A stretch of 64,000 nucleotides of DNA from NCBI GenBank assembly GCA_023431345.1, contig JAEYWK010000186.1, positions 38,946-102,945 of the forward strand, given 5' to 3'. The notes under the pieces are model-generated. The model had not been told where the DNA came from, made no database searches, and worked only from the letters and a program-made list of their open reading frames with translations. The stretch's first letter is position 1, and each line of letters opens with the position of its first letter. Made by a program: the position numbers and the translations under genes. The DNA comes from Pseudomonadota bacterium. GTDB lineage: Bacteria > Myxococcota_A > Polyangia > Polyangiales > Polyangiaceae. This document shows, in pieces, positions 7,027-52,767 of this stretch.

Positions 7027-7044
7027 GGCGGCCCCGCATTCTTA

Positions 7045-23678: not shown

Positions 23679-26600
23679 TCACTCCTCGACGGGTTCGTCG
23701 TCGTCGAGGTTGCTCAGCATCAGGTCGGGCGGATCAATCTTTCCGTAGTTGGCGTCAGCGGTGACAGGCTTGCCGAGCTTGATCGAATAGGGCTGATCGC
23801 CGTCGTCGATCGCATCGTCCTCCCCCGTTACGACGACTTGTTGCGGTGTCGACCAATTGCTGGTCGTAAACTCGAGGTTTTCGGGCACCGCCGTTCCCTC
23901 CGATGGATCGTCGCTGCTGACGGGGATCGACACCAAGCCCTTGGGCATCGACGTCAGCACGACCGTGAACGTCGCGACCCCGCCGGCCTCGGTCGTCGGC
24001 CCGCTGATCATCGACACCTGGATCCCCGCCATGTCGTCGTCGATGTTGAGCAGGTCGACGTCTTCCGGGTTCTTGCCCTGGTAGTTAAGGTCCTGGCTCA
24101 TGACGACGCCGGTCACGATCTTGTACGCCTGATCGCCATCCTGCTCTTTGTCGTTCTCGCCGTGGACCTCGATGGTCTGCTCGACGTTCCAGTTTGCGGG
24201 CGTGAACGTCACCGAGTCCACGGTGATCGTGCCCTCCGTTTCGTCATTGCTGGAGAGCGGGATGGTGACGTCGGCCGTCGGCTTGGAGCGCAAGACGATC
24301 GTGAACGTCGCCGTCTCACCCGTCTCCGTGGTCGGCCCCGACGCCGGCGAAATGTCGATGCCGGCCATGTCGTCGTCGACGTTCGACATCGCGACGTCGG
24401 GCGGATCTGTCTGCGCGTAGTCGGCGTCGGTCGTGGTCGGCTCCCCGAGCACGATCGTGTAGTCCTGGTCGCCGTCTTGCACCGTATCGTCCACCCCCTT
24501 CACGGTGATGGTCTGCGCGGCGTTCCAGTTCGTCGGCGTAAACACTAGCGACGTCGGGCTGACCGTGCCCTCCGAGGTATCGTTGCTGCTCACGGGCACC
24601 GTGACGTCACTCTTCGGCTTCGAAGTGAGCGCGACCGTGAACGAGAAGCTCGCCGCGCTGGCCTTCTCACCCGTCGTCCCGCGGCGGGGCGTGACGGTGA
24701 AGCCGGCGCTGTCGTCGTCCACGTTCTTGAGGGCCACGTCTGCCGCGTCCCTCTTCGAATAGTTCGCGTCGGTGCTGCTGGCCTCCCCGAGCAGGATCAT
24801 GTAGGGCTGATCGCCGTCGACCTCGTCGTCGTTCACCCCCGTGACGGTCACCGTCTTGGCCGAGTTGTAGTCAGTGGTCGTGAACGTCACGGACGCCACG
24901 TTTGGCGTCCCTTCACCCGGGTCACTGCTCGAGATGGGGATGGCGACGCTCGCCGTCGGCTGCGAGGTGAGCACGATCGTGAACGTCGTGCTCTTGCCGT
25001 CTTCCTTGGTGTCGCCGGCGGGCATCGACACCAAGATGCCGGCGCTGTCGTCGTCGATGTTGGTCAGGGTGACGTCGTCGGGATCGAGCCCTGCATAGCC
25101 GGCGTCCATGCTGACCGCCACGCCCACATCGATGGTGTAGACCTGGTCACCGTCTTGCACGCGCTCGTCCACGGGCGTGATGGTGATCTTCTGCGGCGCG
25201 TTCCAGTTGAGCGGCGTAAACGTCACCGAGTCGGGGCTGACGCTACCCTCCTTCGTATTCAGGCTCTTCACGGGGATGGCCACGGGCGCCTTCGGCTCGG
25301 AGCCGAGCACGATCGTGAAGGTCGCCGACATCCCCTTCTCGGTGGTGTCGTTGCTGGCGGGGCTGACCGTGATACGCGGGCTGTCGTCGTCGAGGTTGGT
25401 GGCCGGCACGTCGGCGGCGTCGCGCAGGTTGTATTTCGGATCCTGACTGCTGGCGGGCTCGATCAACACCAGGTAGGGCTGGGGCCCGTCCGCGACTTTG
25501 TCGTCGACGCCGGTCACCGTTACGGTGCGCGGCGAATTCCAGTTCGCGGCGGTGAAGAGCAAGCTGCTCGGGCTCACGGTTGCTTCCGTCGGCTTCGAGC
25601 TGCGCAGCGGGATCGTCACGTCCATGGTCGGCTGCGACTGCAGCTGGATGGTGAACGTCGCGGTGCCGCTCGGCTCCTTGGTGACCACGCCGCCCACCGG
25701 AAGGTTGACGATCACGCCCGGCGAGTCGTTGTCGAGGTTGGTGACGTTGACGTCCGCGACGTCGATGCCCTGGTACTTCGGGTCCTCGCTCTGCGCGGGG
25801 GCGGTGATGATCCGGTAAGGTTGATCGCCGTCGGCGACCTTGTCGTCGACGCCCTTGACCGTGACGGTCTGCGGCGCCGCCCAGTTGTCGCGCGTGAACG
25901 TCAGCAGGGCCGGCGTGACGGTGCCCTCGGCGGGCTTGTTGCTGGAGAGGCCGATGAGCACGTTCTTGGCAGGCCGCGACTGCAAGACGATTTGGAAGGT
26001 GGCAGGCGTGCCGTCTTCGCGCGTCTGCAGGTTGTTCTGGTTACGCAGCAAGATCCCCGGCTGATCATTGTCGAGGTTCGTCACCGTCACGTCGGGCGGA
26101 TCTTTGAGCTTGTAGTTGGCGTCGTCGCTGATCGCTTGGCCAAGGGTGATGCGATAGACCTGGGAGCCGTCCGCCGTGGCGTCGTCGTCGACGCCCTTGA
26201 TCGTGACGGTCTGCGGGGCTCCCCAGTTGAGGCGCGTGAACTTCAGGGCGGCCGTGTTCACGGTCCCTTCAGCCTGGTTCGTGCTCGACACCGGGATGGT
26301 GACGTCGGCCGTTGGCTCCGTGTTCAAGCGAACTTGGAAGGTAGCGGTGAGGCCGTTCTCGCTCGTGAGCAGGTTGTTGACGGGCCAGACGCTGAAGCCA
26401 GCCGTGTCGTCATCGATGTTGCTGACGTCGACGTTGGCCGCCACCATGCCCGAGTAGCTCGGGTCCGTGCTCACGGCGTCGTCGGTGAACACCTTGTAGC
26501 GCTGGTCGCCGTCCTGCATGTCGTCGTTCACGCCCTTGACGGTGACGGTTTGCGGCGCCGACCAATTGGCGGGCGTGAAGACGAGCTGAGGGGGGCTGAC

Positions 26601-28250
26601 CGTGCCTTCGGTGGTGTCGCCGCTGGTGAGCCCGATCGTCACGTCGGCGGTCGGCTTCGAGTTGAGCACCACGGTGAAGGTCGCTGCCTCGCCCCATTCG
26701 CGCGTCGTCAGCAGCGTCGGGGCCACGACCGTGATACCGGCGCTGTCGTCGTCGGTGTTCGACACGGGCACGTCGACGGGCAAGAGCACGCCGTAAGCCG
26801 CATCCGCGCTGGCGGTGCTGGGCGTTACGGTCACGTGATAGACTTGCATGCCGTCTGCGACATCATCATCGTCGACGCCGGTGACGGTCACCGTCTGCGG
26901 AGCGGCCCACGACACCTCGGTGAACACCAGCTGCGTGGGGCTGACGGTCCCCTCCAGCACGTTCGAGCTGGCGACGTCGAGCAGCACGTCACCGCTCGGC
27001 TTCGAGTTCAGCACGACCGTGAACGTGGCTGCGTCACCCATCTCGTGGGTCACGAGCCCGGTGGCGGGCGCCACCGTGATGCCTGGCGAGTCGTCGTCGA
27101 TGTTGATCACGGCGGCGTCGGGGCCGTCGTGCCCGGCGTAGCCCAAATCGTCGCTCTCGGCGGGATTCGTGCGTATCCAATACGGCTGATTGCCGTCGGC
27201 ACGGTCGTCGTCGACGCCCGTCACCGTGATCAGCTGCGGCGCCATCCAGTTCAGCGGCGTGAAGACGACGCTGTCGGGCCAGGCCGTCCCCTCGCTAGGG
27301 TCGTCGCTCACGAGGGTGATGCGCACGTCGCTCGTGGGAGGAGAGTTGAGCGAGATACCGAACGTGGTCATCTCCCCGTTCTCGCGCGTCATCAACCCAG
27401 TAGCGGGAGTCAGAGTGACGCCGGCAGTGTCGTTGTCTTGGTTCTGAACGATCGCGTCGTCGGCGTCGAAGCCGTTGTAACGCGAGTCCGCGCTCATGGC
27501 CGGCCCCGTGACGACGTGATAGGTCTGCAGCCCGTCCGCGATGTCGTCGTCGACGCCGGTGATCGTCACCATCTGCGGCGCCATCCAGTTCGTGGGCGTG
27601 AAGGTGAGCTGGGCGGGGCTCACGGTGCCCTCCGCCGGATTGTCGCTCGAGAGCGGGATGATGACGTCGGCGGTCGGGGCGTGGTTCAGCACGATCCCGA
27701 GCAGCGCTTCACCGCCAGATTCCGTCGTGAGTAGGCCGGAGGGCGGCAGCAGCGTGATGCCGGCGGTCTCGTCGTCGATGTTCTTGACCTGCACGTCCAG
27801 CGGGTCGAGGCCGAAATACTCGGGATCGTCGCTGGTCGCGGGCGAGGTCTTGATCGTGTAGTTCTGCGTCCCGTCCTCGGCCAGGTCATCGACGCCGGTC
27901 ACCTGCACCAGCTGCGGGGCGTTGAAGTTGTCGGGCGTGAACGTGACGCTGATGGGGCTGACCACGCCCTCGGCCTCGTTGCTGCTCGAAAGCGCGATCA
28001 CCACGATGCTGGTCGGCTGGACCTTGAGCGAGACGGTGAAGGTCGCTTTGCCTCCGCGCTCCGTCGTTATCAGGCCCGCGGTCGGCAGGATCACGATGTT
28101 GCCTTGCTCGTCGGCGCTGGGCCCACCGCCGCTGCCGCCGGGCTTCGTGACGTTGGGATCGTATTTGAAATCCCCGAGCAGGCTGTTACAGCCCGCGAGC
28201 GCGAGGGCCGCGCCCGCTAGCCAGGCTTTGAGCGAATTGAGCGACGCCAT
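23679..28250 (-). CDS. Giant (about 1520 aa) surface lipoprotein made of about 14 tandem Calx-beta-like repeats
   Basis: Lipobox MASLNSLKAWLAGAALALAGCNS. About 105-aa unit repeated throughout: AGITVxPxxGLxTTExGxxATFxVVLNSxPTADVTIxLSSxDxxEGTVSPxxLxFTPxNWxAPQTVTVTGVDDDxxDGxQxYxIxT. Antisense ORFs are spaced about 330-350 nt apart, mirroring the repeat period. Confidence 0.75.
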   Translation of the reverse strand: MASLNSLKAWLAGAALALAGCNSLLGDFKYDPNVTKPGGSGGGPSADEQGNIVILPTAGLITTERGGKATFTVSLKVQPTSIVVIALSSSNEAEGVVSPISVTFTPDNFNAPQLVQVTGVDDLAEDGTQNYTIKTSPATSDDPEYFGLDPLDVQVKNIDDETAGITLLPPSGLLTTESGGEALLGIVLNHAPTADVIIPLSSDNPAEGTVSPAQLTFTPTNWMAPQMVTITGVDDDIADGLQTYHVVTGPAMSADSRYNGFDADDAIVQNQDNDTAGVTLTPATGLMTRENGEMTTFGISLNSPPTSDVRITLVSDDPSEGTAWPDSVVFTPLNWMAPQLITVTGVDDDRADGNQPYWIRTNPAESDDLGYAGHDGPDAAVINIDDDSPGITVAPATGLVTHEMGDAATFTVVLNSKPSGDVLLDVASSNVLEGTVSPTQLVFTEVSWAAPQTVTVTGVDDDDVADGMQVYHVTVTPSTASADAAYGVLLPVDVPVSNTDDDSAGITVVAPTLLTTREWGEAATFTVVLNSKPTADVTIGLTSGDTTEGTVSPPQLVFTPANWSAPQTVTVKGVNDDMQDGDQRYKVFTDDAVSTDPSYSGMVAANVDVSNIDDDTAGFSVWPVNNLLTSENGLTATFQVRLNTEPTADVTIPVSSTNQAEGTVNTAALKFTRLNWGAPQTVTIKGVDDDATADGSQVYRITLGQAISDDANYKLKDPPDVTVTNLDNDQPGILLRNQNNLQTREDGTPATFQIVLQSRPAKNVLIGLSSNKPAEGTVTPALLTFTRDNWAAPQTVTVKGVDDKVADGDQPYRIITAPAQSEDPKYQGIDVADVNVTNLDNDSPGVIVNLPVGGVVTKEPSGTATFTIQLQSQPTMDVTIPLRSSKPTEATVSPSSLLFTAANWNSPRTVTVTGVDDKVADGPQPYLVLIEPASSQDPKYNLRDAADVPATNLDDDSPRITVSPASNDTTEKGMSATFTIVLGSEPKAPVAIPVKSLNTKEGSVSPDSVTFTPLNWNAPQKITITPVDERVQDGDQVYTIDVGVAVSMDAGYAGLDPDDVTLTNIDDDSAGILVSMPAGDTKEDGKSTTFTIVLTSQPTASVAIPISSSDPGEGTPNVASVTFTTTDYNSAKTVTVTGVNDDEVDGDQPYMILLGEASSTDANYSKRDAADVALKNVDDDSAGFTVTPRRGTTGEKASAASFSFTVALTSKPKSDVTVPVSSNDTSEGTVSPTSLVFTPTNWNAAQTITVKGVDDTVQDGDQDYTIVLGEPTTTDADYAQTDPPDVAMSNVDDDMAGIDISPASGPTTETGETATFTIVLRSKPTADVTIPLSSNDETEGTITVDSVTFTPANWNVEQTIEVHGENDKEQDGDQAYKIVTGVVMSQDLNYQGKNPEDVDLLNIDDDMAGIQVSMISGPTTEAGGVATFTVVLTSMPKGLVSIPVSSDDPSEGTAVPENLEFTTSNWSTPQQVVVTGEDDAIDDGDQPYSIKLGKPVTADANYGKIDPPDLMLSNLDDDEPVEE

Positions 28251-29281
28251 CAGAAAGACCCTTTCACGCCCGCGCTGCCGATACCCACGAACGGAGACCA
28301 CTCGACGGAGGCGCGCGCAGGTGCGGGCTTGCCGCCCGACGCCGCGCCGCTACCGCCGAAGACGCGCGGATCGACCAGCAGCAGCAGCGTGCCGGTCGCT
28401 ACCCCCACGCCGCCGACGATGAAGCCGACCGTGGAGAGCCTGCCATACAGGTAGTAGCTGTCCACGTCGCCTCGGTTCGGGCACGCCCTGTCGACGCACG
28501 ACTCGTTCAGCGTGTCGCGCTTGCCGATCGCGAGCGCGCCCGTGACGCCGCCGAGCGCGAGGCCCACGCCGCCGATCGCGAACGCGCTGATGATTGCCGG
28601 CTTGCGCCAGGGCGGGTCGGGCACCTCCGTCGTGATGACGGCGGTCGCGTCTTCCTCGGGCTTGGGCTTGGCGTCGGGCGGCGCGTCTTCCAGCTCGAAC
28701 GCGATGCTGAGCGACTCACCTTCGCGTAGCTCCACCGTCTTCTTCGCGGTGTAAAAGCCTGGTGCCGACGCCCGCACCTCGTGCTTGCCCGGATCGGCGG
28801 GGCGCTTCACGCCGAGTGAGGCCGCCGGGACGGGGACACCGTCGAGCGTGACGACGGGATCGCTCGGGCCCGCGACGGTGATCGTGATCCAAGGCAAGCG
28901 CGGAGGGATGGCCTCGATCTCGACCTTGGCGTCGGCCAGGGCCTTGACCCAGGACGCCGGCGCGCCGTCCGCTACACCCTCGCGGATGATGGTGGAGTAG
29001 TTCTCGTGCGCGTCGACCAGCTTGCCCAGGCCGACCTGAGCGCGCGCGAGATCACGCAGCAGCGTCGGAGCGTGCACGAGCTGCGCCGCGCGCGAGAAGC
29101 GGTCGGCCGCGGTCGCGTAGTCTTTCGCGTTCAACGCGACGTAACCCTCCTGCGCGAGCGTGCGCGCCGTCGCACGATCGGCCGAGCTTGGCTCATCGGC
29201 CAACGCGGCGGCGGGCGCGATCAAGGCTGCGCCGGCGCTGAGAACGAACGTCAAGCTAGCGAGGGAGAGTCGATGCCCCAC
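28250..29281 (-). CDS. Secreted protein with N-terminal TPR-like helical region, PEGA-like beta domain and C-terminal TM anchor
   Basis: Signal peptide MGHRLSLASLTFVLSAGAALIAPAAALA. TPR-like (YATAADRFSRAAQLVHAPTLLRDLARAQVGLGKLVDAHENY). PEGA-like (PGKHEVRASAPGFYTAKKTVELREGESLSIAFEL). TM (AIISAFAIGGVGLALGGVTGALAIG). Stop abuts the start of the repeat lipoprotein. Confidence 0.6.
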   Translation of the reverse strand: MGHRLSLASLTFVLSAGAALIAPAAALADEPSSADRATARTLAQEGYVALNAKDYATAADRFSRAAQLVHAPTLLRDLARAQVGLGKLVDAHENYSTIIREGVADGAPASWVKALADAKVEIEAIPPRLPWITITVAGPSDPVVTLDGVPVPAASLGVKRPADPGKHEVRASAPGFYTAKKTVELREGESLSIAFELEDAPPDAKPKPEEDATAVITTEVPDPPWRKPAIISAFAIGGVGLALGGVTGALAIGKRDTLNESCVDRACPNRGDVDSYYLYGRLSTVGFIVGGVGVATGTLLLLVDPRVFGGSGAASGGKPAPARASVEWSPFVGIGSAGVKGSF

Positions 29282-29397
29282 CTCAGCGGCTTAATTCCAC
29301 GCCGATGCGAGTGCAACTTGCTTTATCAACTAAACGGCCGAGCCGTCGTCCCGCGCATGCGTGTCCGATCGCACCGCTACCATTCGTAGTCATTGTT

Positions 29398-29416
29398 GTG
29401 AGATCTTAACGCTCAC
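29398..29416. promoter_or_regulatory. Inverted repeat GTGAGatcttaacgCTCAC in the comparatively AT-rich divergent intergenic region
   Basis: Read directly. Lies in the 305-bp spacer between the divergent PEGA/Calx operon and the flotillin operon. The spacer is locally AT-richer (ttaattccac, ctttatcaactaaacgg, tcattgttgtgagatcttaacg) than the window. Confidence 0.25.
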
Positions 29417-29586
29417 CCGTGCATGCTAGGCAGCGCGGGTCAGCCGAGCGTCGACTGCCGGCTCGGCCCCCCAGAGCCGTACCGAGAGTCGGGCAGCCAG
29501 AGCGGAACCCGCTCACCTGCCCCGCGGGTTTGGGGGCTTTTTCGAGGCCCTTCGCGGCGTGTTCGCGGCTGGTTTATGCTGGGTAG

Positions 29587-30069
29587 TTGGAGATGAACGA
29601 AAGGTCGCTGCTGGCGCTCGGGGTGCTGCTTGGCGTTGGGTCCGGCAAGCCGCCGAAAGAATGGCTCGAGAGCGCGCACGGCTACCTTCGCGAGAAGCAG
29701 GCGGAGGACCCGATGAACAGCATCGTGATGACGGTGCTCGCGGGGGCCGCCGCCTTCTACGCCGCGGAGCGTTATGAGAACCCCCAGGTCAAGTCGTTCT
29801 TCGACGCGCTGCTTTACGTCTCCACCAACATGTCCGTGGGGTACTCCGACATTTTCGCGCAAACAGACGCGGGCAAGGCCATTGGCTCAGCGCTCATGAC
29901 CTACGGCCCCGCTATGGCTACGCGGGCGTTCGATCCTCCGCACGAGGCCCGGCTCCGCGCCGAAGAGGGTCAGCGCTCGGAGGCTCGGCTGGGCGAGATC
30001 GCGGACAAGCTGGAGGCCATCTTGCTCGAGCTCCGCAGCCACCGAGGCGAAACGTCCGAGCATGGCTGA
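29587..30069 (+). CDS. Small two-TM K+-channel-like pore protein (Ion_trans_2-like) with GYS in place of GYG
   Basis: TM1 IVMTVLAGAAAFYAAE. Pore-helix/filter FFDALLYVSTNMSVGYSDIF (compare TxxTxGYGD). TM2 KAIGSALMTYGPAMATRA. Cytoplasmic helical tail. Stop overlaps the start of the next gene by 8 nt. Confidence 0.55.
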   Translation: MEMNERSLLALGVLLGVGSGKPPKEWLESAHGYLREKQAEDPMNSIVMTVLAGAAAFYAAERYENPQVKSFFDALLYVSTNMSVGYSDIFAQTDAGKAIGSALMTYGPAMATRAFDPPHEARLRAEEGQRSEARLGEIADKLEAILLELRSHRGETSEHG

Positions 30070-30817
30070 AGTCGTCGTCTTGGCGCTGTCGTTTCCGAGC
30101 GTCGTGTTCACGGTGCTGCTCGGCGTCGTGCTCATCTATTGGGCCTTCGTGATGGTGGGGGTGGTCCACATCGGGGAAGGCTCCGAGGGCGCGCTCGACG
30201 GGCACCTCGATGGCGCGACCAAGGGCCTGCTCGAGGGCGCGGCGGACCACGTCGGTCATGCTCACGGGGATCTCGCGCCTTCGGGCGGCGGAGGGGACTT
30301 GGAGCTCGATGACGACGGCGGCGGCGCCCTGGCCGCGATCATGAGCGCGCTCCACCTGCGCTCGGTGCCGGCTACGGTCGTGCTCAGCTTGATCATCACC
30401 TTCTCGTGGTTGGTCAGCGTGGTCGGCATGCAGGTGCTCACGCGGCTTGCGCCCGCCTTGCTCGGCTCGTTCACGTCGCTCGGAGTGCTGCTGCTCGCCT
30501 TGCTGCTGTCGCTGCCGTTGACGTCGATCACGGCGCGCCCTTTGCGCAAGGTGTTCGCGACCAAGCACGCGCCCGCGAAATCGGACTTCATCGGTCGCAC
30601 GTGCACCGTCCGCACCGGCACCGTGACGGCCAAGTTCGGCGAAGCGACCTTGCACGACGGCGGGGCGGGGCTGGTCGTGCGCGTGCGCGTCGAGGACGGC
30701 AAACAGCTCGCGCGAGGCGAGCAGGCGCTCATCGTCGACTACGACGCCGAGCGCGAGAGCTACTTGGTCGAGCCGATGCGCGACGTGCTCGGCGCCAAGC
30801 TCCCTCGCTCGTCGTAG
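30062..30817 (+). CDS. YqiJ/NfeD-like membrane protein (N-terminal TM region plus C-terminal OB-fold)
   Basis: N-terminal TMs (VVVLALSFPSVVFTVLLGVVLIYWAFVMVGVV; second cluster ATVVLSLIITFSWLVSVVGMQVL; SLGVLLLALLLSLPL). C-terminal OB-like FIGRTCTVRTGTVTAKFGEATLHDGGAGLVVRVRVEDGKQLARGEQALIVDYDAERESYLV. Immediately precedes flotillin, like E. coli yqiJK. Confidence 0.65.
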   Translation: MAEVVVLALSFPSVVFTVLLGVVLIYWAFVMVGVVHIGEGSEGALDGHLDGATKGLLEGAADHVGHAHGDLAPSGGGGDLELDDDGGGALAAIMSALHLRSVPATVVLSLIITFSWLVSVVGMQVLTRLAPALLGSFTSLGVLLLALLLSLPLTSITARPLRKVFATKHAPAKSDFIGRTCTVRTGTVTAKFGEATLHDGGAGLVVRVRVEDGKQLARGEQALIVDYDAERESYLVEPMRDVLGAKLPRSS

Positions 30818-30994
30818 CGCGCGTCCGTCGCCCGGGCGTGGTGCGGAAGGCGCTGGCCCTGCTCAGGCGACTAGCGTGAAGACGAGCGTCGCAGCCGCAG
30901 GAGAGCGACGAGCTTCAATAAGCGTCCCCGCTCACCCGTTCAGCCTCTCTACGCCCGCAGACAGCGCTCGCGGCTTCGGGCATTCTTTGCGGCG

Positions 30995-32986
30995 ATGAAC
31001 CTTGGGGATAGCGACATGCTCGGGCTGTATCCGGTGATCGTGGTCGTGGCGATCATCGCCTTCTTGCTGTTCGGCTTGCTGGCGCTGGTGGCGCGCTTCT
31101 ATCGCCAGGTCGATCAGGGGCGGGCGCTCGTCATCAACACCATGCGCTCGGACCCGATCGTGGCGTTCACGGGCGCCGTCGTCTACCCCATCATCAACCG
31201 CGCCGAGACGATGGACCTCTCCGTGAAGACGATCGACATCGATCGTCGCGGCAAGGAGGGCCTGATCTGCAACGACAACATCCGCGCCGACATCAACGTC
31301 ACCTTCTTCGTGCGGGTGAACAAGACCGTCGACGACGTGCTCAAGGTCGCCCAGTCGATCGGCTGCGCGCGCGCCAGCGACCCCGCCGCGCTCGAGGAGC
31401 TGTTCACGGCCAAGTTCGCGGAGGCGCTCAAGACCGTCGGCAAGCACTTCAACTTCGAGGAGCTGTACACCAAGCGCGACGACTTCAAGGACAAGATCAT
31501 CGAGGTCATCGGCAAAGACCTGAACGGCTTCATCCTCGACGACGCCGCCATCGACTACCTCGAGCAGACCCCGCTCGAGCACCTCGACAAAGACAACATC
31601 ATGGATGCCGACGGCATCCGCAAGATCACCGACTTGACGGTGATTCAGAACGTGAAGACCAACGAGCTCCGCCAGAAGGAGCGCATGGAAATGGGCAGTC
31701 AGAACCTGAACGCCGACGAAGCGCTGTTCCGGTTCGAGCAGCGCCGGGCCGAGGCGGAGGCCAAGAAAGAGAAGGAAATCGCGGTCGCCAAGGCCCGCGA
31801 AGAGAACGAGGCCATGCGCGTCGCCAGCGACGAGCGCAAGAAGACGCAGCTCATCGTCACCAAGAACGAAGAAGAGGCGCAGGTGGCGGACCAAGCCAAG
31901 GAGCGCGGCGTCGCTATCGCCACCAAGCACAAGGAGCGCGAGATCGCGGTCGAGAACGAGCGCGTCGAGAAGGCCCGCCAGCTCGAGGTGATCGGGCGTG
32001 AGCGCGAGGTGGCGCTGGGCGGCATCGCGCGTGACAAAGAAGTCGAGGTTCAGAAGAAGGAGATCGCGACGGTGATCCGCGATCGGATCGCGGTCGAGAA
32101 GACCGTCGCGGGCGAGGAGGAACAGATCAAGGACGTGCGACGCCTGGCCGAGGCCAACCGCGAGAAGGAGGTCGTGCGCATCGCGGCCGAAGCGGCGGCG
32201 GCGGAGGTAACGACCAAGCAGGTGAAGGCCGCCCAGGCCTCGGAGGAGGTCGCCAAGATCAAGGCCCGCGAGCGGATCGTGACCGCCGAGGCGGAGCTCG
32301 ACACGGCCGACAAGCTGGCGCGCGCCAAGATTCGCATCGCGGAAGGCGTGCAAGCGGAGGCCGCCGCCGAAGGCCTGGCCCAGGCGCGGGTGAAGGAAGC
32401 CGACGCGGCCGCGAGCGAGAAGCTCGGCTTGACCGAAGCCAAGGTCTCGCTGGAGAAGTTGAGCGCGGAGGCGGCGGGCGAGGAGAAGCAAGGCCTGGCC
32501 AAGGTGCGGGTGCGCGAAGCCGAAGCGGCCGCGGTCGAGAAGCAGGGCGTGGCCGAGGCCGCCGCCATTCGCGAGAAGCTGAGCGCGGAGGCGCAGGGTC
32601 TGGCCCAGAAGGCGGCGTCGATGAAGGCGCTCGACGAGTCGGGCCGCGGCCACGAAGAGTTCCGGCTGCAGGTCGAGAATCAACGCGCGATCGCGATCGA
32701 GTCGCTCAAGGTCAAGAAAGACATCGTGGCCGCGCAGGCGCAGATCCTGGCCGAGGCCATGTCCAAAGCGAAGATCAACATCGTCGGCGGCGACGGCCAA
32801 TTCTTCCAGCGCTTCGTCAGCGCCATCTCGCTCGGCCAATCCGTGGAGGGCGCGCTCGAGCAGAGCGACACGCTGCGTAGCCTCGTCGAAGGGCTCTCCA
32901 GCGGCGAAGGCGGCCCCGCGCTCGCGGCCGCGCTCGAGAAGATGTCCGGCAAAGGCGACGGCAAGGGTCCCAACAAGCGCGCCTAA
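30995..32986 (+). CDS. Flotillin (SPFH/band-7, YqiK/FloT-like) with about 300-aa E/A/K-rich coiled coil
   Basis: N-terminal TM (LYPVIVVVAIIAFLLFGLLALVARF). SPFH core (YRQVDQGRALVINTMRSDPIVAFTGAVVYPIINRAETMDLSVKTIDIDRRGKEGLICNDNIRADINVTFFVRV). Long EAxxK heptad region (KEKEIAVAKAREENEAMR...AEAAAAEVTTKQVKAAQ...). Confidence 0.85.
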   Translation: MNLGDSDMLGLYPVIVVVAIIAFLLFGLLALVARFYRQVDQGRALVINTMRSDPIVAFTGAVVYPIINRAETMDLSVKTIDIDRRGKEGLICNDNIRADINVTFFVRVNKTVDDVLKVAQSIGCARASDPAALEELFTAKFAEALKTVGKHFNFEELYTKRDDFKDKIIEVIGKDLNGFILDDAAIDYLEQTPLEHLDKDNIMDADGIRKITDLTVIQNVKTNELRQKERMEMGSQNLNADEALFRFEQRRAEAEAKKEKEIAVAKAREENEAMRVASDERKKTQLIVTKNEEEAQVADQAKERGVAIATKHKEREIAVENERVEKARQLEVIGREREVALGGIARDKEVEVQKKEIATVIRDRIAVEKTVAGEEEQIKDVRRLAEANREKEVVRIAAEAAAAEVTTKQVKAAQASEEVAKIKARERIVTAEAELDTADKLARAKIRIAEGVQAEAAAEGLAQARVKEADAAASEKLGLTEAKVSLEKLSAEAAGEEKQGLAKVRVREAEAAAVEKQGVAEAAAIREKLSAEAQGLAQKAASMKALDESGRGHEEFRLQVENQRAIAIESLKVKKDIVAAQAQILAEAMSKAKINIVGGDGQFFQRFVSAISLGQSVEGALEQSDTLRSLVEGLSSGEGGPALAAALEKMSGKGDGKGPNKRA

Positions 32987-33010
32987 CGGCCTTCGCCGAG
33001 AGTCGTTTCG

Positions 33011-36000
33011 ATGACTGAGCAGAACGAGCGGAGCCTCGAGGGCGGCTCCTACGAGGTCATTCGGCGGCGCCTGCTCGAGAGGGCGACCGAGCTTTCGGCG
33101 ACCGCGGAGGCGCTGAACCAGAAGCGCAAGGCGCTGTTCGGCGGGGGTGAGCTCACGCTCGTCGCGACGGAGCGCGTTCGCACCGAGCACAACTGTACTC
33201 CGCGCGACGTGGTCAGCGTCGCGGGGCAGCTCTTGTTCGGGTTCGAGGTGTTCATCGGCTTGAAGAGCGAGACGCGCGTCCCCGACGTGCTCAGCTTGTT
33301 CAAGTTCGAGAAGAACGGCGAAGGCTACGACCTGGCGCAGCAGTCGTTCGAGGGCCCCGGCGCCTACCTGGCCGACCCCGAGTTCGACAAGCAGTTCCGA
33401 GACTCCTTTCGCTACTACAAGGAAGCGCGCCTGCTGCAGCTGCTGCGCACGGAGCAGCGGCTGCTCGTGGCGCTGCAGATCGGCGCCCGCCCCAGCGACT
33501 CCAAGATCTTCCGCTTCGCCATCGACGGCAAGGGGCGCGTCACTTTCATGGATGCGCGTGGCGAGGACGACTACAAGCCGCCGCGCCGGCACCCGTTCGA
33601 GTGGACGCCGACGCGCCGCGAGGACCAGGTCGCGGGCAAGCATCCGCACATCAGCGTGCTCAACGAGGTCTTCGTCGAGACCATCAACGGCGATCTCACG
33701 ATCAAGATCGAGAACAACACCGAGGACGGCCTCGGTGTCTACCGCGAGCCCGTCGACGATCCGAACCAGACCCTCGATGACGCCGAGATCGGCTACGCCC
33801 GCGTCGCGGGCCTGATCTTGCTCAAGATTCGGCCCTTCCGCGAGCAGAAGACGCGCTACCTCGTCTACAACCCGCGCACCGAAGAAGTGCTGCGCGTCGA
33901 CGCGCTGGGCGTCGCCTGCGTCGAGCTACCGGAAGACCACGGCTTGATCTTCCCCGGCGGCTACTACCTGACGACGGGCGAGCACAAGCTGTTCGACGGC
34001 GACAGCGAGGGTCTCGAGTTTCGTCGCAGCATCAGCTCCCCGAACGGGGAGGACGTGCTCTACGTTTTTTACCGCGTCGAGCAGGGCGAGTACGAGCTCT
34101 TGCCGTACAACCTGATCGGCAAAGAGGTCAAAAACCCCATCCGCTGCCACGGCTACAGCCTCTTCCCCGACGGCACGATGGTGGTGTTTCGCGCCGAGAG
34201 CGAGCCGACGCGCGTGCACCCCGTGCAGATCTGGTTGACGCCCTTCACGACCGCCGAGTTCGCGGCCTCCGCGCCGACCGACGGCTCGTACTTGGCCAAG
34301 GTCGGTAACGCGGCGCTCGTCAGCGGCATCAGCGAGCTGCTCAGCATTCGCAAGCTGGCGCAGACCGAGAAGCCGACGCGCCGCACCTTCGAGGACTTGG
34401 TGCGCGCGGTGCGCAAGGCGATCGATACGCACTACTGGCTCGGTCACGCGGAGCTGGGCGGCCTGCTCGAAACCGTGCGCGAGCTGTTCAAGAGCTCGGA
34501 GCTGATCGTCGATGAGTTCGAGAAGCAGCTCGCGCTCGAGCGCACGGCGCGCCAAGCCATCGACGAGGCCGAGACGGCTCAGGCTGCCCTGCTAGCGCAG
34601 GTTCGGCCGAGCGAGCTCAAGTCGGTCGAGGCGTACTTGAGCGGGCTCTCCGAGCTGAAGCGCCAGCGCGGCAGGCTGATCACGCTCAAGGAGCTGCGCG
34701 CCATCGACGTCGCGCGCGTCGAGGCGCTCGAGAGCGGCGTGGCCGAGCGCTTCGGGGAGGTGAGCCGCGCTTGCGTCGACTTCTTCCTGGCCGAGAACGC
34801 CTTCCAGCCCCTGCTGGATCGGCTCGACGCCGTCGTGAGCCAGGTCGGGCAAGCCCACAAGACGACGGAGCTCGGGCCGCTGCGCCAGGAGCTCGACGCG
34901 GCGCACGAGGGGCTCACGCTGCTGAGCGAGACCATCGCCGGCTTGCCCATCGACGACCCCACCGTACGTACCCAAATCTTGGACGGTACGAGCTCGGCGT
35001 TCGCCCAGCAAAATCGGGCGCGGGCCGTGCTCGACGGCCGTCAGCGGGAGCTGGCCGCCAGCGAGGGCCGCGCCGAGTTCGGCGTGCAGTTCAAGCTCTT
35101 GAGCCAGAGCGTCACGAGCGCGCTCGCGCTGGCGGTGACGCCGGAAGCGTGCGACGAGCAGCTGGGGCGCTTGATGCTGCAGCTCGAGGAGCTCGAGGGC
35201 CGCTTTGGCGAGCTCGACGAGTTCTCGCTGCAGCTGGCGGAGAAGCGCGAGGAAGTGCTGGACGCGGTCGCGGCCAAGCGCCAGCTGCTGGTCGAGGAGC
35301 GTCAGCGCCGCGCCCAGTCGCTCGCGACCGCAGCGGAGCGAGTTCTGGGCGGCATCGTGCGCCGGGCCCAGAGCGTCACGAGCGCGGACGAGCTCAACTC
35401 CTACTTCGCGTCCGACGCGATGGTGCACAAGCTGGGTGAGCTGTCGGCCGACCTGCGCAAGCTGGGCGACTCGGTGCGCGCCGACGAGCTGGACTCCAAG
35501 CTGAAGAGCGCCAAGCAGAACGCGCTCCGGGCGCTGCGCGACAAGACCGACCTGCTCGAAGACGGCGGCGCCATCATTCGCCTCGGGCCGCACCGCTTCA
35601 CCGTCAACACGCGCCCGCTCGAGCTCGCGATCGTCCCTCGCGACGGCGTGCTCAACGTGCACCTGACCGGAACCGATTTCTACGAGCCGCTCTCGAACCC
35701 GCTCTTGGACGCGGCGCGCGAGCTGTGGGACCAAGAGCTCGTCGCGGAGACGCGCGAGGTGTACCGCGCGGAGTACTTGGCGGTGAGCTTGCTCTTGGAG
35801 GCGGAGGCCGGCGCCCCCGGGCGGAGCGTGCCGGAGCTGGAGCAGGCGGCGCGCGAAGGCAAGCTGCTCGAGGTCGTGCGGCAGGCCGCCGCCGAGCGCA
35901 TCGACGAAGGCCACGAGCGCGGCGTGCACGACGCCGACGCCGCGGGCATCCTGGCCAAGCTCCTCGGCCTGCTGAAGCTCGCCGGAGGTCTGCGCCATTC

Positions 36001-38530
36001 ACCGCGCGCGCGCGGCCTGGCCTGGCTGTACTGGTTGGGCCTGCCCGCGGAGCGCAAGGAGCTGGTCGAGCGCCGCGCGCAGAGCGCGGGCCGCCTCCGT
36101 GAGCGCCTGAAAGACTCGAGCGCCGAGCAGGAGCTCGCGCGCGATCTGCTTCACGGCATCGGCGACGCTTTGCAGCAGCTCGGCCTGGAGTCCGAGCGGC
36201 CGCTGGCGCGCTTCGCCGCTCGCTACCTCGTCACGGAGATAGCGACTGACCGACCGCAGTTCACGGAGTCGAGCGCGGCGGAGGAGCTGCGCCGCGAATT
36301 CACGTCGTACCTCGAGCAGTCGGGGGCCGCGCGCGGCTTCCAGGATGACCTGCGCGCGCTGGAGCGGCACCCCGCCGAGCGGCTGCGCGTCGCGCTGTCT
36401 TACGTGGACGCCTTCACGCGCCAGCTCGGGCGGGGCGCCGAGTACCGGCTCGAGCTGGCGGCGCGCTTGGTGGGCGAGGGGACGCTCGAGTTCGCGGTCT
36501 CTACGGCGCTGGTCGACGGCTCGGTGCACGACCTGCTCGGCGCTCATCCGCGGGTGGTGAGTCGCACCCTCTCGTTCACGCTGTGTGAGCTGCTCGAGCG
36601 CGTGACGACGTTCATCGAAGATCGCGCGCCCCGCTTCCGCGCCTTCCGCAGCCTGAAGACGGAGCTCGCGGCGCGCGCCCGCGAGCGGCTCAGGCTGAAC
36701 GAATACCTGCCGCGCGTGCTCACCTCCTTCGTGCGTAATCGCTTGATCGACCAAGTGTATCTGCCGCTGGTCGGCGCGAACCTCGCCAAGCAGCTGGGCG
36801 CGGCGGGCGCGGCCAAACGCACGGATCAGATGGGCTTGCTCTTGCTCGTGTCGCCCCCCGGCTACGGCAAGACCACGCTCATGGAGTATGTGGCGAGCAA
36901 GCTGGGCCTCGTGTTCGTGAAGGTGAACGGGCCCGCGCTAGGCACCGACGTGCACTCCTTGGACCCGAGCGAAGCGCCCAACGCCACCGCGCGCCAAGAG
37001 GTCGAGAAGATCAACCTGGCGCTCGAGATGGGCAACAACGTGATGCTGTATCTCGACGATATTCAGCACACCCACCCCGAGCTCTTGCAGAAGTTCATCT
37101 CGCTGTGCGACGCGCAGCGCCGCATCGAGGGCGTGTGGAACGGCAAGACCCGCACCTACGACCTGCGGGGTAAGAAATTCTGCATTTGCATGGCCGGCAA
37201 CCCGTACACGGAGAGCGGCGCGCGCTTTCAGATCCCGGACATGCTCGCGAACCGCGCCGATACCTATAATTTGGGCGATATCCTGGACGGAAAGCAGGAC
37301 GCCTTCGCGCTCAGCTACCTCGAGAACGCGCTCATTTCGAACACGACGCTGGCCCCGCTCGCCGGGCGCGACCCGGCCGACGTCTACAAGCTCATCGGCA
37401 TGGCGCGCGGCGACGACGTCGCGCTGAGCGAGCTGAGCCACGGCTACTCGAGCGCGGAGGCGCAAGAGATCGTGGAGGTTTTCAAGCGCCTGTTCAAGGT
37501 GCAAGACGTGCTGTTGCGCGTGAACCTCGAGTACATCGCCTCCGCGTCGCAAGACGATCGCTACCGGAGCGAGCCGCCCTTCAAGCTGCAGGGCAGCTAC
37601 CGCAACATGGCCAAGCTGACCGAGAAGGTGGTGGCGGCCATGAACGACGCCGAGCTAGAGCGGTTGATCGACGATCACTACGCCAGCGAAGCGCAGACGT
37701 TGACCAAGGGCGCCGAACAAAATCTGCTCAAGCTGGCCGAGATGCGCGGTCGCCTCAGCCCCGAGCAGAGCGCGCGCTGGAGCGAGATCAAGGAGGCGTT
37801 CGGCCGCGTGCAGCGCATGGGCGGTAGCGAGGCGGATCCGGTGACGCGCGTCACGGGCACGCTGTCGGGCCTCGACGTCCAGCTCAAGGGCATTCGCGAA
37901 GCGATCGGCGCGGCCGCGGCCGCGGCCAGCGCCGGGAGCGGCGGCGATCTGGCGGCGCTGGCCAAGAGCTTGACCGAGCTCGGCCGACCTCGCGTCGAGG
38001 TGCGGCTGGAAGACGAGGGTAACGACGCGCTGATGACGCTGTTCAACCGGCAAACCGAGCTGCTGGAGCAAGCGCTCTCGGCGCTCGGAGAGCGCGCTCG
38101 GTCGCCGGTCGCGAGCGCAGCCAGCGGCGACGAGCAGAAGCTGTCGGAGCTGCTCGGCGCGCTCGGCAAGCTCTCGCGGCAAATCGAGCAAGGCGCCGAT
38201 GGCAGAGCGCGCCGCGTCGACGTCGAGCTGGGGGTGGCGGGTCCCACCAATCTGTATCGACCGCTTTCGAGCCGTGACGTCCTCGCCGGCGGCGTCTTCG
38301 TGGCGACTTACGAGAAGCTGCCGCCGCTGGGCGCGGACGTGCGGGTGGCGCTGCGCTTCCCGACAGGCCCGAGCTGCGAGCTGACGGGCAAGGTCGCGTG
38401 GGTGCGCGACAGGCTCGGCGACGACGCTCCGCCAGGCTTTGGTGTGCGCTTCGCGGAGGTATCGGCCGAGGCGCGCGAGCTGCTTCGGGCCTACGCTGAA
38501 GCGCGCGAGCCCATGCTGCACGACGATTGA
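33011..38530 (+). CDS. Giant (1839 aa) flotillin-operon protein: helical/coiled-coil N-terminal 1200 aa, AAA+ (MoxR/AAA_5-like) ATPase core, C-terminal PilZ-like domain
   Basis: Walker A LLLLVSPPGYGKTTLMEYV at about 36861. Walker B/sensor NVMLYLDDIQ...RIEGVWNGKTRTYDLRGKKFCICMAGNPYTE. C-terminal RARRVDVELGVAGPTNLYRPLSSRDVLAGGVFVATYEKLPPLGADVRVALRFPTGPSCELTGKVAWVRDR...PGFGVRFAEV resembles PilZ (RxxxR ... D-x-x-x-GG ... VVW ... PGxGVxF). 25-nt gap after flotillin. Confidence 0.7.
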   Translation: MTEQNERSLEGGSYEVIRRRLLERATELSATAEALNQKRKALFGGGELTLVATERVRTEHNCTPRDVVSVAGQLLFGFEVFIGLKSETRVPDVLSLFKFEKNGEGYDLAQQSFEGPGAYLADPEFDKQFRDSFRYYKEARLLQLLRTEQRLLVALQIGARPSDSKIFRFAIDGKGRVTFMDARGEDDYKPPRRHPFEWTPTRREDQVAGKHPHISVLNEVFVETINGDLTIKIENNTEDGLGVYREPVDDPNQTLDDAEIGYARVAGLILLKIRPFREQKTRYLVYNPRTEEVLRVDALGVACVELPEDHGLIFPGGYYLTTGEHKLFDGDSEGLEFRRSISSPNGEDVLYVFYRVEQGEYELLPYNLIGKEVKNPIRCHGYSLFPDGTMVVFRAESEPTRVHPVQIWLTPFTTAEFAASAPTDGSYLAKVGNAALVSGISELLSIRKLAQTEKPTRRTFEDLVRAVRKAIDTHYWLGHAELGGLLETVRELFKSSELIVDEFEKQLALERTARQAIDEAETAQAALLAQVRPSELKSVEAYLSGLSELKRQRGRLITLKELRAIDVARVEALESGVAERFGEVSRACVDFFLAENAFQPLLDRLDAVVSQVGQAHKTTELGPLRQELDAAHEGLTLLSETIAGLPIDDPTVRTQILDGTSSAFAQQNRARAVLDGRQRELAASEGRAEFGVQFKLLSQSVTSALALAVTPEACDEQLGRLMLQLEELEGRFGELDEFSLQLAEKREEVLDAVAAKRQLLVEERQRRAQSLATAAERVLGGIVRRAQSVTSADELNSYFASDAMVHKLGELSADLRKLGDSVRADELDSKLKSAKQNALRALRDKTDLLEDGGAIIRLGPHRFTVNTRPLELAIVPRDGVLNVHLTGTDFYEPLSNPLLDAARELWDQELVAETREVYRAEYLAVSLLLEAEAGAPGRSVPELEQAAREGKLLEVVRQAAAERIDEGHERGVHDADAAGILAKLLGLLKLAGGLRHSPRARGLAWLYWLGLPAERKELVERRAQSAGRLRERLKDSSAEQELARDLLHGIGDALQQLGLESERPLARFAARYLVTEIATDRPQFTESSAAEELRREFTSYLEQSGAARGFQDDLRALERHPAERLRVALSYVDAFTRQLGRGAEYRLELAARLVGEGTLEFAVSTALVDGSVHDLLGAHPRVVSRTLSFTLCELLERVTTFIEDRAPRFRAFRSLKTELAARARERLRLNEYLPRVLTSFVRNRLIDQVYLPLVGANLAKQLGAAGAAKRTDQMGLLLLVSPPGYGKTTLMEYVASKLGLVFVKVNGPALGTDVHSLDPSEAPNATARQEVEKINLALEMGNNVMLYLDDIQHTHPELLQKFISLCDAQRRIEGVWNGKTRTYDLRGKKFCICMAGNPYTESGARFQIPDMLANRADTYNLGDILDGKQDAFALSYLENALISNTTLAPLAGRDPADVYKLIGMARGDDVALSELSHGYSSAEAQEIVEVFKRLFKVQDVLLRVNLEYIASASQDDRYRSEPPFKLQGSYRNMAKLTEKVVAAMNDAELERLIDDHYASEAQTLTKGAEQNLLKLAEMRGRLSPEQSARWSEIKEAFGRVQRMGGSEADPVTRVTGTLSGLDVQLKGIREAIGAAAAAASAGSGGDLAALAKSLTELGRPRVEVRLEDEGNDALMTLFNRQTELLEQALSALGERARSPVASAASGDEQKLSELLGALGKLSRQIEQGADGRARRVDVELGVAGPTNLYRPLSSRDVLAGGVFVATYEKLPPLGADVRVALRFPTGPSCELTGKVAWVRDRLGDDAPPGFGVRFAEVSAEARELLRAYAEAREPMLHDD

Positions 38531-52599: not shown

Positions 52600-52767
52600 C
52601 GCCGAAAGCTCGGGTGGCGCGGCGCGCTCTGCGCAGCGTAGCCCGCGGGGTTGCGGACCACTGACCGATCCCTGACAGCTGTGTGTCAGGGATATTGCAG
52701 CGGTTCGGGCCCCGCGTTGGGGGGCCACTGCCGGTACCGGAGGCGCGGTGCTAGGCCATGGGCCCCG

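Follow-up and report, generated by a model that had tools for sequence, protein, structure and literature searches.

We analysed a stretch of 64,000 nt (hereafter the window) from contig JAEYWK010000186.1 of a bacterium of the family Polyangiaceae. It carries a block of four genes, called g1 to g4 in their order on the plus strand, which encode a small channel-like protein, a YqiJ-like membrane protein, a flotillin and a giant AAA+ ATPase with a PilZ-like tail. An earlier note on this DNA, made from the sequence alone, had described four co-directional genes here, and all four open reading frames (ORFs) are present on the plus strand where it placed them. In the public gene call for this contig (ENA ERZ27268761), the products of g1, g2, g3 and g4 are 158, 251, 656 and 1839 amino acids (aa) long, respectively. 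The block and its spacers are as follows:

29225..29592, no strand assigned: intergenic region separating g1 from the divergent PEGA/Calx-beta genes (minus strand), of lower GC; presumed promoter region
29593..30069, plus strand: g1, K-channel-pore-like protein, 158 aa; called start ATG at 29593, alternative TTG start at 29587
30062..30817, plus strand: g2, YqiJ/YuaF-type (NfeD2-like) membrane protein, 251 aa
30818-30994/31015, plus strand: g2–g3 gap of 177-198 nt, with an imperfect inverted repeat at 30827-30871 and no Rfam match
31016..32986, plus strand: g3, YqiK-type flotillin (SPFH2), 656 aa; called start at 31016, alternative ATG at 30995
33011..38530, plus strand: g4, predicted DUF3686-family AAA+ ATPase, 1839 aa

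The genes had been called tightly packed, and this holds for part of the block. An 8-nt overlap joins g1 and g2 (ATGGCTGA) and the g3–g4 spacer measures 24 nt, against the 25 nt first given; the g2–g3 spacing, which had gone unmentioned, is 177-198 nt here versus a median of ~43 nt in related loci, so the block is not uniformly tight. The divergent spacer is 305 nt long by the longest ORFs, as described before, and 368 nt by the called genes. Its GC content of 0.63-0.64 is lower than that of the upstream gene (28100-29299; about 0.69-0.71); the block itself starts with genes of 0.63-0.69. Scans for sigma-70-like sites, sigma-54-like sites, terminators and Rfam families around the block gave nothing above chance.

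The conservation of the block was analysed in a scan of one genome per species, which revealed at least 588 species with a relative of g4. Eighty loci were taken from these, belonging by record title to Myxococcota (about 22), Actinomycetota (25), Gammaproteobacteria (25), Betaproteobacteria (3), Planctomycetota (2) and Acidobacteriota (2), and the window proteins were searched against the six-frame ORFs of a comparison set of 82 loci (designated by L numbers). Homologues of g2, g3 and g4 were found in 75, 78 and 82 of the 82 loci, respectively, in the order g2–g3–g4 and on one strand, with g2 adjoining g3 in 74 and with median spacings of 43 nt (g2–g3) and 112 nt. The exceptions to the intact order are contig ends (L025, L074, L079, L072) and insertions (L002, L003, L004, L012). 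Because order and strand are kept in 74-78 of the 82 loci, across six phyla, chance adjacency is ruled out: the three-gene core is conserved far beyond chance. A block common to six phyla supports a functional link between the ATPase and the flotillin module, as the earlier note had suggested. That note had also asked whether the neighbourhood extends beyond this genome; g2–g3–g4 is conserved well beyond it, whereas g1 and the PilZ-like tail of g4 are each found in 8 of the 82 loci.

Several loci of the set show peculiarities of their own. In Labilithrix (L002), a probably secreted protein of 512 aa, hydrophobic near its N-terminus, is encoded between the YqiJ-like and flotillin genes (5794-7332), and a 115-aa putative lipoprotein between the flotillin and ATPase genes (9634-9981). 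Insertions of 1.6 kb (between 6223 and 7806) and 6.4 kb (between 3500 and 9989) interrupt the cassette in L003 and L004, respectively. One contig with the label 'uncultured Clostridia bacterium' (L013, CAZQBW010000056.1) stands between Myxococcota loci in the list of matches, and its cassette shares 54% identity with that of myxobacteria; this bin is probably mis-assigned.

The middle pair had been recognised as a YqiJ/NfeD-like protein followed by an SPFH flotillin, and BLASTP bears this out. The g2 protein shares 24% identity over 186 aa with Escherichia coli YqiJ (E=9e-5), and g3 shares 27% identity over 461 aa with YqiK of E. coli K-12 (E=1e-32). Because of these two matches, g2–g3 appears by homology to be a real, although divergent, yqiJK-type module. 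Three hydrophobic segments are seen in the hydropathy profile of g2, which also has an acidic loop rich in His and Gly and ends in a soluble domain. Its multi-transmembrane (TM) N-terminal half, soluble C-terminal domain, YqiJ homology and gene position directly upstream of the flotillin are those of an NfeD2/YqiJ-YuaF partner; the Pfam match to YqiJ_N is weak (E=0.024, below the cut-off). The loop, which lies between hydrophobic segments 1 and 2 (window 30170-30340, residues about 37-92), is rich in Asp, Glu, His and Gly (…HLDGATKGLLEGAADHVGHAHGDL…GGGGDLELDDDGGG). A similar one occurs in the Labilithrix g2 homologue, and it could be a metal- or cation-binding loop.

The g3 protein has an N-terminal TM helix (a single segment, residues 7-25), an SPFH domain of divergent sequence and a long helical region rich in Glu and Ala. 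The YqiK match places it with the SPFH2/YqiK-type flotillins, and its homologues are named YqiK or SPFH, some of them with PF01145. For g3 itself no Pfam family was matched at E<=0.1, Band_7 (PF01145) included, the SPFH domain being divergent, and a profile of 15 g3 homologues retrieved no PDB chain at E<=0.01. An AlphaFold2 model built from 15 close homologues reached a predicted local distance difference test score (pLDDT) of 55, with the SPFH region below 50. Gene order and protein families in g2–g3 are those of the NfeD2–SPFH2 two-gene module, represented by E. coli yqiJK and Bacillus subtilis yuaFG (floT). The E. coli locus differs in having no ATPase gene downstream, yqiK being followed by sibD/ibsD, and g3 differs from YqiK in being longer (656 versus 553 aa) and too divergent for Pfam Band_7.

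The largest member of the core, g4, has Pfam matches to DUF3686 (PF12458, E=7.6e-186), DUF7902, AAA, AAA_5, RuvB_N and PilZ (E=6e-7). The PilZ match exceeds the Pfam cut-off, and the AAA+/PilZ composition first proposed for this protein is confirmed. Its parts are:

33089..34435, plus strand: DUF3686 domain (PF12458), residues 27-475, an N-terminal helix and then a beta-propeller
34436..36727, plus strand: long helical rod, including DUF7902 at residues 596-680 (34796-35050)
36728..37735, plus strand: AAA+ module with conserved C-terminal extension, about residues 1240-1575 (AAA+ core about 1240-1450); Pfam AAA, AAA_5 and RuvB_N
36851-36877, plus strand: Walker A, SPPGYGKTT
37055-37060, plus strand: Walker B, LYLDDIQH, with Asp-Asp at D1349-D1350
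38273..38497, plus strand: PilZ-like C-terminal domain, residues 1755-1829; Pfam PilZ at 30.3 bits versus a cut-off of 22.5

An AlphaFold2 model of residues 1-720 (26 sequences, 35-52% identical to the query) has a mean pLDDT of 88.5, with a helix at residues 13-43 and a beta-rich domain at residues 49-410. Foldseek searches with this domain retrieved generic beta-propellers (DCAF1 WD40, PON1 paraoxonase, tricorn and prolyl oligopeptidase), none of them a specific solved relative; helical-bundle matches were also obtained for the modelled N-terminal part. In an alignment of 18 family members, 33-51% identical to the window protein, conservation extends to about residue 1575. Walker A (SPPGYGKTT), the sensor-1 Asn (N1397) and one Arg after it (R1415) are invariant in these sequences, as is a Walker B motif of Asp-Asp instead of Asp-Glu, which may mean slow or regulated hydrolysis in the DUF3686 family. 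A canonical aromatic pore loop was not identified in g4 by eye. No hydrophobic segment clearly exceeds the hydropathy cut-off of 1.6 (the maximum, 1.6, is at the threshold), so g4 is probably soluble. The family is large: at least 4857 homologues were found, and a search of 1.84 billion representatives with the N-terminal 700 residues retrieved 925 clusters (50% identity).

NCBI and Pfam label this family 'DNA repair ATPase' or 'ATPase involved in DNA repair'. If the name were right, g4 would be a true repair enzyme and its linkage to the flotillin incidental, a reading that can draw on the family names and on a weak RuvB_N match. That match is at P-loop level and scores 22.8 bits against a cut-off of 27. 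An AAA+ profile searched against the PDB likewise aligned ~40-70 residues around the P-loop/Walker A of NVL, Rix7, p97 and RuvB; since similarity is restricted to the P-loop region, the profile places g4 in no particular AAA+ clade. The Pfam scan of g4 contained no nuclease, helicase, DNA-binding or SMC/ABC domain (SMC and AAA_23 included), and the gene is fixed beside two membrane proteins in six phyla. We therefore reject a DNA-repair function, to which we assign a negligible probability, and the name is probably an annotation transfer to the long helical region. A literature search on DUF3686, PF12458 and flotillin with DNA repair ATPase returned nothing relevant, with no ATPase biochemistry described.

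In Proteobacteria, the trio sits inside PspA-type membrane-stress operons. In 19 loci of Gamma- and Betaproteobacteria, a DUF2170 protein (CesT-like YjfI, E=3e-50) and a PspA_IM30 protein (PspA-like YjfJ, E=2e-49) are encoded directly upstream of the core. Outside the Proteobacteria, neither a PspA nor a YjfI homologue was found at any locus of the set, so the cassette in the window is an abbreviated form. Downstream of the ATPase gene and on the same strand, several gammaproteobacterial loci encode a rhomboid intramembrane protease (PF01694) and a PLD-like hydrolase (PF13091); these downstream genes lie at:

L048:15160-15759 and 15763-16449
L045:15092-15814
L068:14874-15458

A fused version of the cassette is carried by the Pseudomonas fluorescens megaplasmid pQBR103 (L084, NC_009444.1 85452-100855), in the order PspA, rhomboid, DUF2491, DUF350, DUF1190, glutathionylspermidine-synthase-like, YqiJ-like, SPFH and 'DNA repair ATPase'; genes resembling yjfK/L/M/C follow the rhomboid gene in this row. 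It unites two PspA operon classes that are treated separately in the parts of Ravi et al. (2024) drawn on here.

This core has been catalogued before. Ravi et al. (mSystems 9:e00847-23; PMC11237479) describe an operon that joins a CesT/Tir–PspA pair to a flotillin, a beta-propeller AAA+ protein and a 3-TM YqiJ/YuaF protein, and report that abbreviated operons are widespread; these keep flotillin, YqiJ and in some cases the ATPase, lack the CesT/Tir–PspA pair and may cooperate with PspA encoded elsewhere. In the passages covered here, that computational study proposes a role in sub-membrane dynamics and no mechanism for the ATPase, and mentions a PLD gene and no rhomboid. With its N-terminal beta-propeller, its helical region and a gene that adjoins those for the flotillin and the YqiJ-like protein, g4 corresponds to the ATPase of this operon. 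The DUF2170 (CesT/Tir-like) and PspA-like pair that marks the 5' end of the full form is absent from the window locus, which has the abbreviated form. The match rests on the description in the text of the article; the example accession given there for the operon did not fit this context in the supplementary table. The window differs in its upstream channel-like gene and in the PilZ fusion on the ATPase, neither of which is mentioned in those passages.

A second description is genetic. The bacABCDEF cluster of Pseudomonas aeruginosa (PA3732-PA3727; PMC10948618) encodes BacA (DUF2170), BacB (PspA-like) and BacD (flotillin). According to the sections of that article used here, it forms one transcript by reverse transcription PCR, with a sigma-54-binding site proposed at its promoter, and a bacA mutant accumulates BacB to BacF jointly, these being co-regulated by BacA. 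Biofilm formation, rhamnolipid production and virulence all depend on the cluster; the phenotypes in these sections concern bacA and bacB, and not the ATPase. We compared the published primers with our loci. Those for bacC/D and bacD/E match the g3 orthologues of Pseudomonas loci with 0-3 mismatches. The bacD/E reverse primer, after one T is dropped from a run of five, encodes T-E-N-N-C-I-A, a near-invariant DUF3686 motif, and fits the 5' region of g4 orthologues with 1-2 mismatches (L057, L073 and L051); the other primers in the excerpt of the table are 20-mers. BacE is thus very probably the DUF3686 ATPase, with BacC and BacD corresponding to the YqiJ-like protein and the flotillin. The bac operon has BacA and BacB first and BacF last, whereas genes for PspA, DUF2170 and PLD proteins are absent from the window, as is any sigma-54-like site.

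The core operon is therefore already catalogued and, in part, genetically characterised, and what is new in this lineage is the channel-like gene and the PilZ tail. The earlier note did not recognise the arrangement as described. This stands for those two additions and fails for the core, which appears in both articles (PMC11237479 and PMC10948618). It had further allowed that the ATPase might belong to a family whose linkage to flotillin was already known, with a known function; the linkage is indeed described, and no function is known.

A giant NTPase beside membrane proteins could also be read as an anti-phage or abortive-infection system, in which the propeller would be part of the sensor, with membrane partners and a pore-forming, depolarising effector. 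The cassette has a patchy distribution with 46-60% identity across phyla, which suggests horizontal transfer, and is occasionally found on megaplasmids; as a matter of general knowledge, defence systems often have large ATPases with repeat-domain sensors. The plasmid signal is slight, however, since only 13 of 72,556 plasmid records carry the DUF3686 domain, a search that added Deinococcus, Hymenobacter, Vibrio and Proteus to the list of carriers. The window neighbours are not defence genes (Calx-beta, PEGA, GH16, AraC and PPK2), and the proteobacterial context consists of PspA, polyamine and rhomboid genes. PADLOC gave P-loop-level matches alone for g4 (E>=0.004) and none for g1-g3, so that a defence role lacks support from its models, and we regard this explanation as very improbable.

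The first of the two additions, g1, belongs to Pfam Ion_trans_2 (E=8e-8, 32.4 bits versus a cut-off of 22.5) and aligns with the pore domain of KvAP (E=8e-8). Its layout, two weakly hydrophobic helices (maximum hydropathy 1.36) around a pore helix and filter, followed by a C-terminal amphipathic helix, is the TM/pore-helix/filter/TM arrangement of that family. The filter was located as follows:

29833..29850, plus strand: g1 filter segment S81-V-G-Y-S-D86, aligned to TVGYGD of KvAP

Among the close g1 homologues listed, the filter reads SVGYSD in 96 of 120 and SVGYAD in 6 of 120; more distant relatives have SAGYGD, SVGYDN or SGGYTN. The T-[VI]-G-[YF]-G selectivity filter was not found in g1 (S-V-G-Y-S), and the family as a whole varies at the last position, with S, A, G, D or T, and thus does not conserve the second glycine of the K+ signature. 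The helix/pore-helix/filter/helix layout is common to g1 and two-TM K+ channel pores (KcsA; KvAP pore), from which g1 differs in its SVGYSD in place of TVGYGD, in its weakly hydrophobic helices and in having a short C-terminal helix instead of a sensor or RCK domain. The description of g1 as an ion-conducting element is thus uncertain, the filter being degenerate. We treat g1 as a putative channel whose K+ selectivity, and even conduction, are uncertain.

The g1 family is small, with 291 matches in 5.8 billion proteins. Its eight homologues in the comparison set are all from Polyangia, and each immediately adjoins g2:

Polyangiaceae: L001, L003 and L011
Labilithrix: L002
Kofleriaceae: L016, L018, L019 and L021

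A hidden Markov model (HMM) built from these eight detected no further channel genes in the other 74 loci. The gene is co-directional with g2 and overlaps it in Polyangiaceae, and is divergent from it in Labilithrix and Kofleriaceae, with a spacer of ~50-380 nt. It is possible that g1 is a functionally unconnected neighbour, an independent small channel that in Polyangia happens to stand at the 5' end of a three-gene cassette. Its absence from 74 of the 82 loci, including Polyangiaceae with intact upstream sequence (L008, L020 and L024), and its divergent transcription in two of the groups would fit such a view. The homologues of the three families have low sequence identity to one another, yet adjacency to g2 is kept in 8 of 8 loci and despite the inversion. 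Every homologue within the 82 loci adjoins a cassette, small as the family is, and the two genes overlap by 8 nt in the window. We consequently consider the unconnected-neighbour explanation rather unlikely. The link of the channel-like gene to the YqiJ-like gene, which the earlier note had drawn from this one locus, is borne out by adjacency across three Polyangia families in both orientations.

A bolder proposal takes this link further. In Polyangia, a minimal pore of the K-channel type might have been captured by the flotillin/YqiJ cage and its AAA+ partner and become their dedicated client; the scaffold, under remodelling by the ATPase, would then gate, sequester or quality-control a cation leak when the membrane is stressed. 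We offer it tentatively, as a proposal with the odds clearly against it. A literature search on SPFH with NfeD and potassium channel returned nothing relevant.

The second addition is the tail of g4, which belongs to the PilZ family by its Pfam match (PF07238, 30.3 bits versus 22.5), beginning at profile position 28; TIGR02266 also matches (E=3e-12) but below the cut-off of that model. The tail is kept in 120 of 120 close Polyangia homologues listed, and within the comparison set it is fused to g4 in 8 of the 82 loci, all of them Polyangiaceae or Labilithrix. We inspected 20 of the 120 aligned tails together with a 15-sequence alignment. Neither c-di-GMP-binding motif was found in the tails inspected: RxxxR was missing, with RARRVDVE in the window protein and PRFDV in Labilithrix, and in place of (D/N)xSxxG there was D-V-L-A-G-G, with Leu, Phe, Cys or Val at the Ser position. 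As a single sequence the tail matched nothing in the PDB. Its profile retrieved the Xanthomonas PilZ structures 3dsg, 3cnr, 4f48 and 7lkq (E=1e-4), and no other PilZ protein; the first three we take to be XC1028/XAC1133. To our knowledge, this Xanthomonas protein does not bind c-di-GMP. It is a stand-alone adaptor between FimX (EAL domain) and the PilB ATPase. The tail of g4 thus resembles its best solved match in having no c-di-GMP-binding motifs, and differs in being fused to an AAA+ protein. The component that the earlier note had called possibly c-di-GMP-responsive loses its basis, and we reject c-di-GMP control through this domain. The outcome cautions that a PilZ match is not always a sign of c-di-GMP control.

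These observations also bear on the reading of the block as a single four-part microdomain machine, in which the flotillin would couple a K+ channel to an ATP-driven part switched by c-di-GMP through the PilZ tail. The genes are co-directional, g1 and g2 are translationally coupled, the PilZ and Ion_trans_2 matches exceed the Pfam cut-offs and the g1–g2 adjacency is kept in eight loci. However, g1 and the tail occur together in only 3 of the 82 loci, and each is found without the other: the Kofleriaceae have g1 without the tail, and L008 and L024 have the tail without g1. Because of this pattern, the channel and the tail appear to be independent acquisitions of the lineage, and the four parts do not form one conserved unit. 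With the c-di-GMP motifs absent in the tails inspected, their closest solved relatives being Xanthomonas PilZ, and the second filter Gly not conserved, we consider a four-part machine improbable.

Taken together, our results favour, with a probability of roughly 0.58, the reading that the locus is an abbreviated (PspA-less) form of a conserved membrane cassette, in which a flotillin/YqiJ-like scaffold would be remodelled by a propeller–rod–AAA+ ATPase and to which the Polyangia extras were recruited independently. The flotillin, anchored by its one N-terminal helix, and its 3-TM YqiJ-like partner would form an oligomeric cage on the cytoplasmic membrane face, by analogy with the solved SPFH assemblies HflK/C–FtsH, QmcA–YbbJ and flotillin-1/2 (see also the discussion in PMC13086221). 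The ATPase would dock on the cage through its propeller and rod and spend ATP on building up, remodelling or taking apart the scaffold or its clients when the membrane is under stress, a role suggested by the parallel with AAA+ partners of other SPFH or ESCRT-III-like scaffolds. Both HflK/C–FtsH and the mitochondrial SLP2–PARL–YME1L (SPY) complex combine an SPFH scaffold with an AAA+ machine, and SPY has a rhomboid, as the proteobacterial cassettes do. FtsH and YME1L are membrane-anchored AAA proteases, whereas g4 has a propeller and rod and no clear TM segment or protease domain, so beyond the AAA+ fold the comparison is an analogy. The variable accessory genes (PspA/CesT, rhomboid, PLD and the channel-like protein) would be lineage-specific clients or effectors. 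Among them g1, translationally coupled to the YqiJ-like gene, is probably a membrane client or effector of the scaffold, and the PilZ-fold tail, of the non-c-di-GMP-binding adaptor type, is probably a protein-docking module.

Several points weigh against this interpretation of the locus as an abbreviated membrane cassette. The model of g3 is poor (pLDDT 55), and the cage is thus proposed from homology alone. The remodelling role of the ATPase is an analogy, and with an Asp-Asp Walker B and no obvious pore loop a threading unfoldase mode is not assured; the enzyme may be switch-like or threading. No PspA or YjfI homologue was found in the window, nor did any of the loci from myxobacteria or actinobacteria show one at up to 10 kb from the cassette. 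Given the 177-198-nt gap between g2 and g3, the single transcript is a prediction. The identification of BacE presumes a one-base error in a printed primer. Finally, g1, with its weakly hydrophobic helices, occurs in 8 of 82 loci, and adjacency is what argues for its membership of the system.

Elsewhere in the window, the divergent neighbours of the block (23679-29281, minus strand) encode a Calx-beta-containing protein of ~1520-1540 aa and a PEGA-domain protein of 324-343 aa. PEGA-like ORFs also lie near the cassette in L003, L019, L020 and L021, which may reflect shared repeat domains alone. A 1007-aa UvrA-like protein (52651-55674, plus strand) has UvrA interaction, DNA-binding and ABC domains, with weak N-terminal STAND/AAA_16 P-loop matches, and is possibly a UvrA paralogue and not the housekeeping gene. 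In a 683-aa protein (8368-10419, plus strand), a Ser/Thr protein kinase domain of eukaryotic type is joined to an extracytoplasmic CHASE sensor domain. Two ORFs of 876 and 857 aa (19139-21769, plus strand, and 60631-63207, minus strand, respectively) have no Pfam match at E<=1e-4 and may be shadow ORFs of GC-rich DNA.

Bacterial flotillins and their NfeD partners are widespread, and their mechanism is still debated. Our analysis points to the DUF3686 AAA+ ATPase, mis-named as a DNA-repair enzyme and present in at least 588 species of six or more phyla, as the most conserved large partner of flotillins. The cassette assignment would correct the database name of g4 and link the myxobacterial and actinobacterial loci to the bac/PSP-type membrane-stress operon of Pseudomonas, and it draws attention to a lineage whose scaffold appears to be wired to a channel-like membrane protein. 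If the channel is a client, the locus would offer a simple system for the action of an SPFH cage on membrane proteins. If, as the bolder proposal has it, a pore was captured, this would be the first genetically hard-wired pair of an SPFH protein and an ion channel in bacteria, and the PilZ tail would recruit a further partner. Such a pair would provide a tractable prokaryotic model for channel regulation by stomatin, podocin and MEC-2, and a route to the function of the DUF3686 ATPase.

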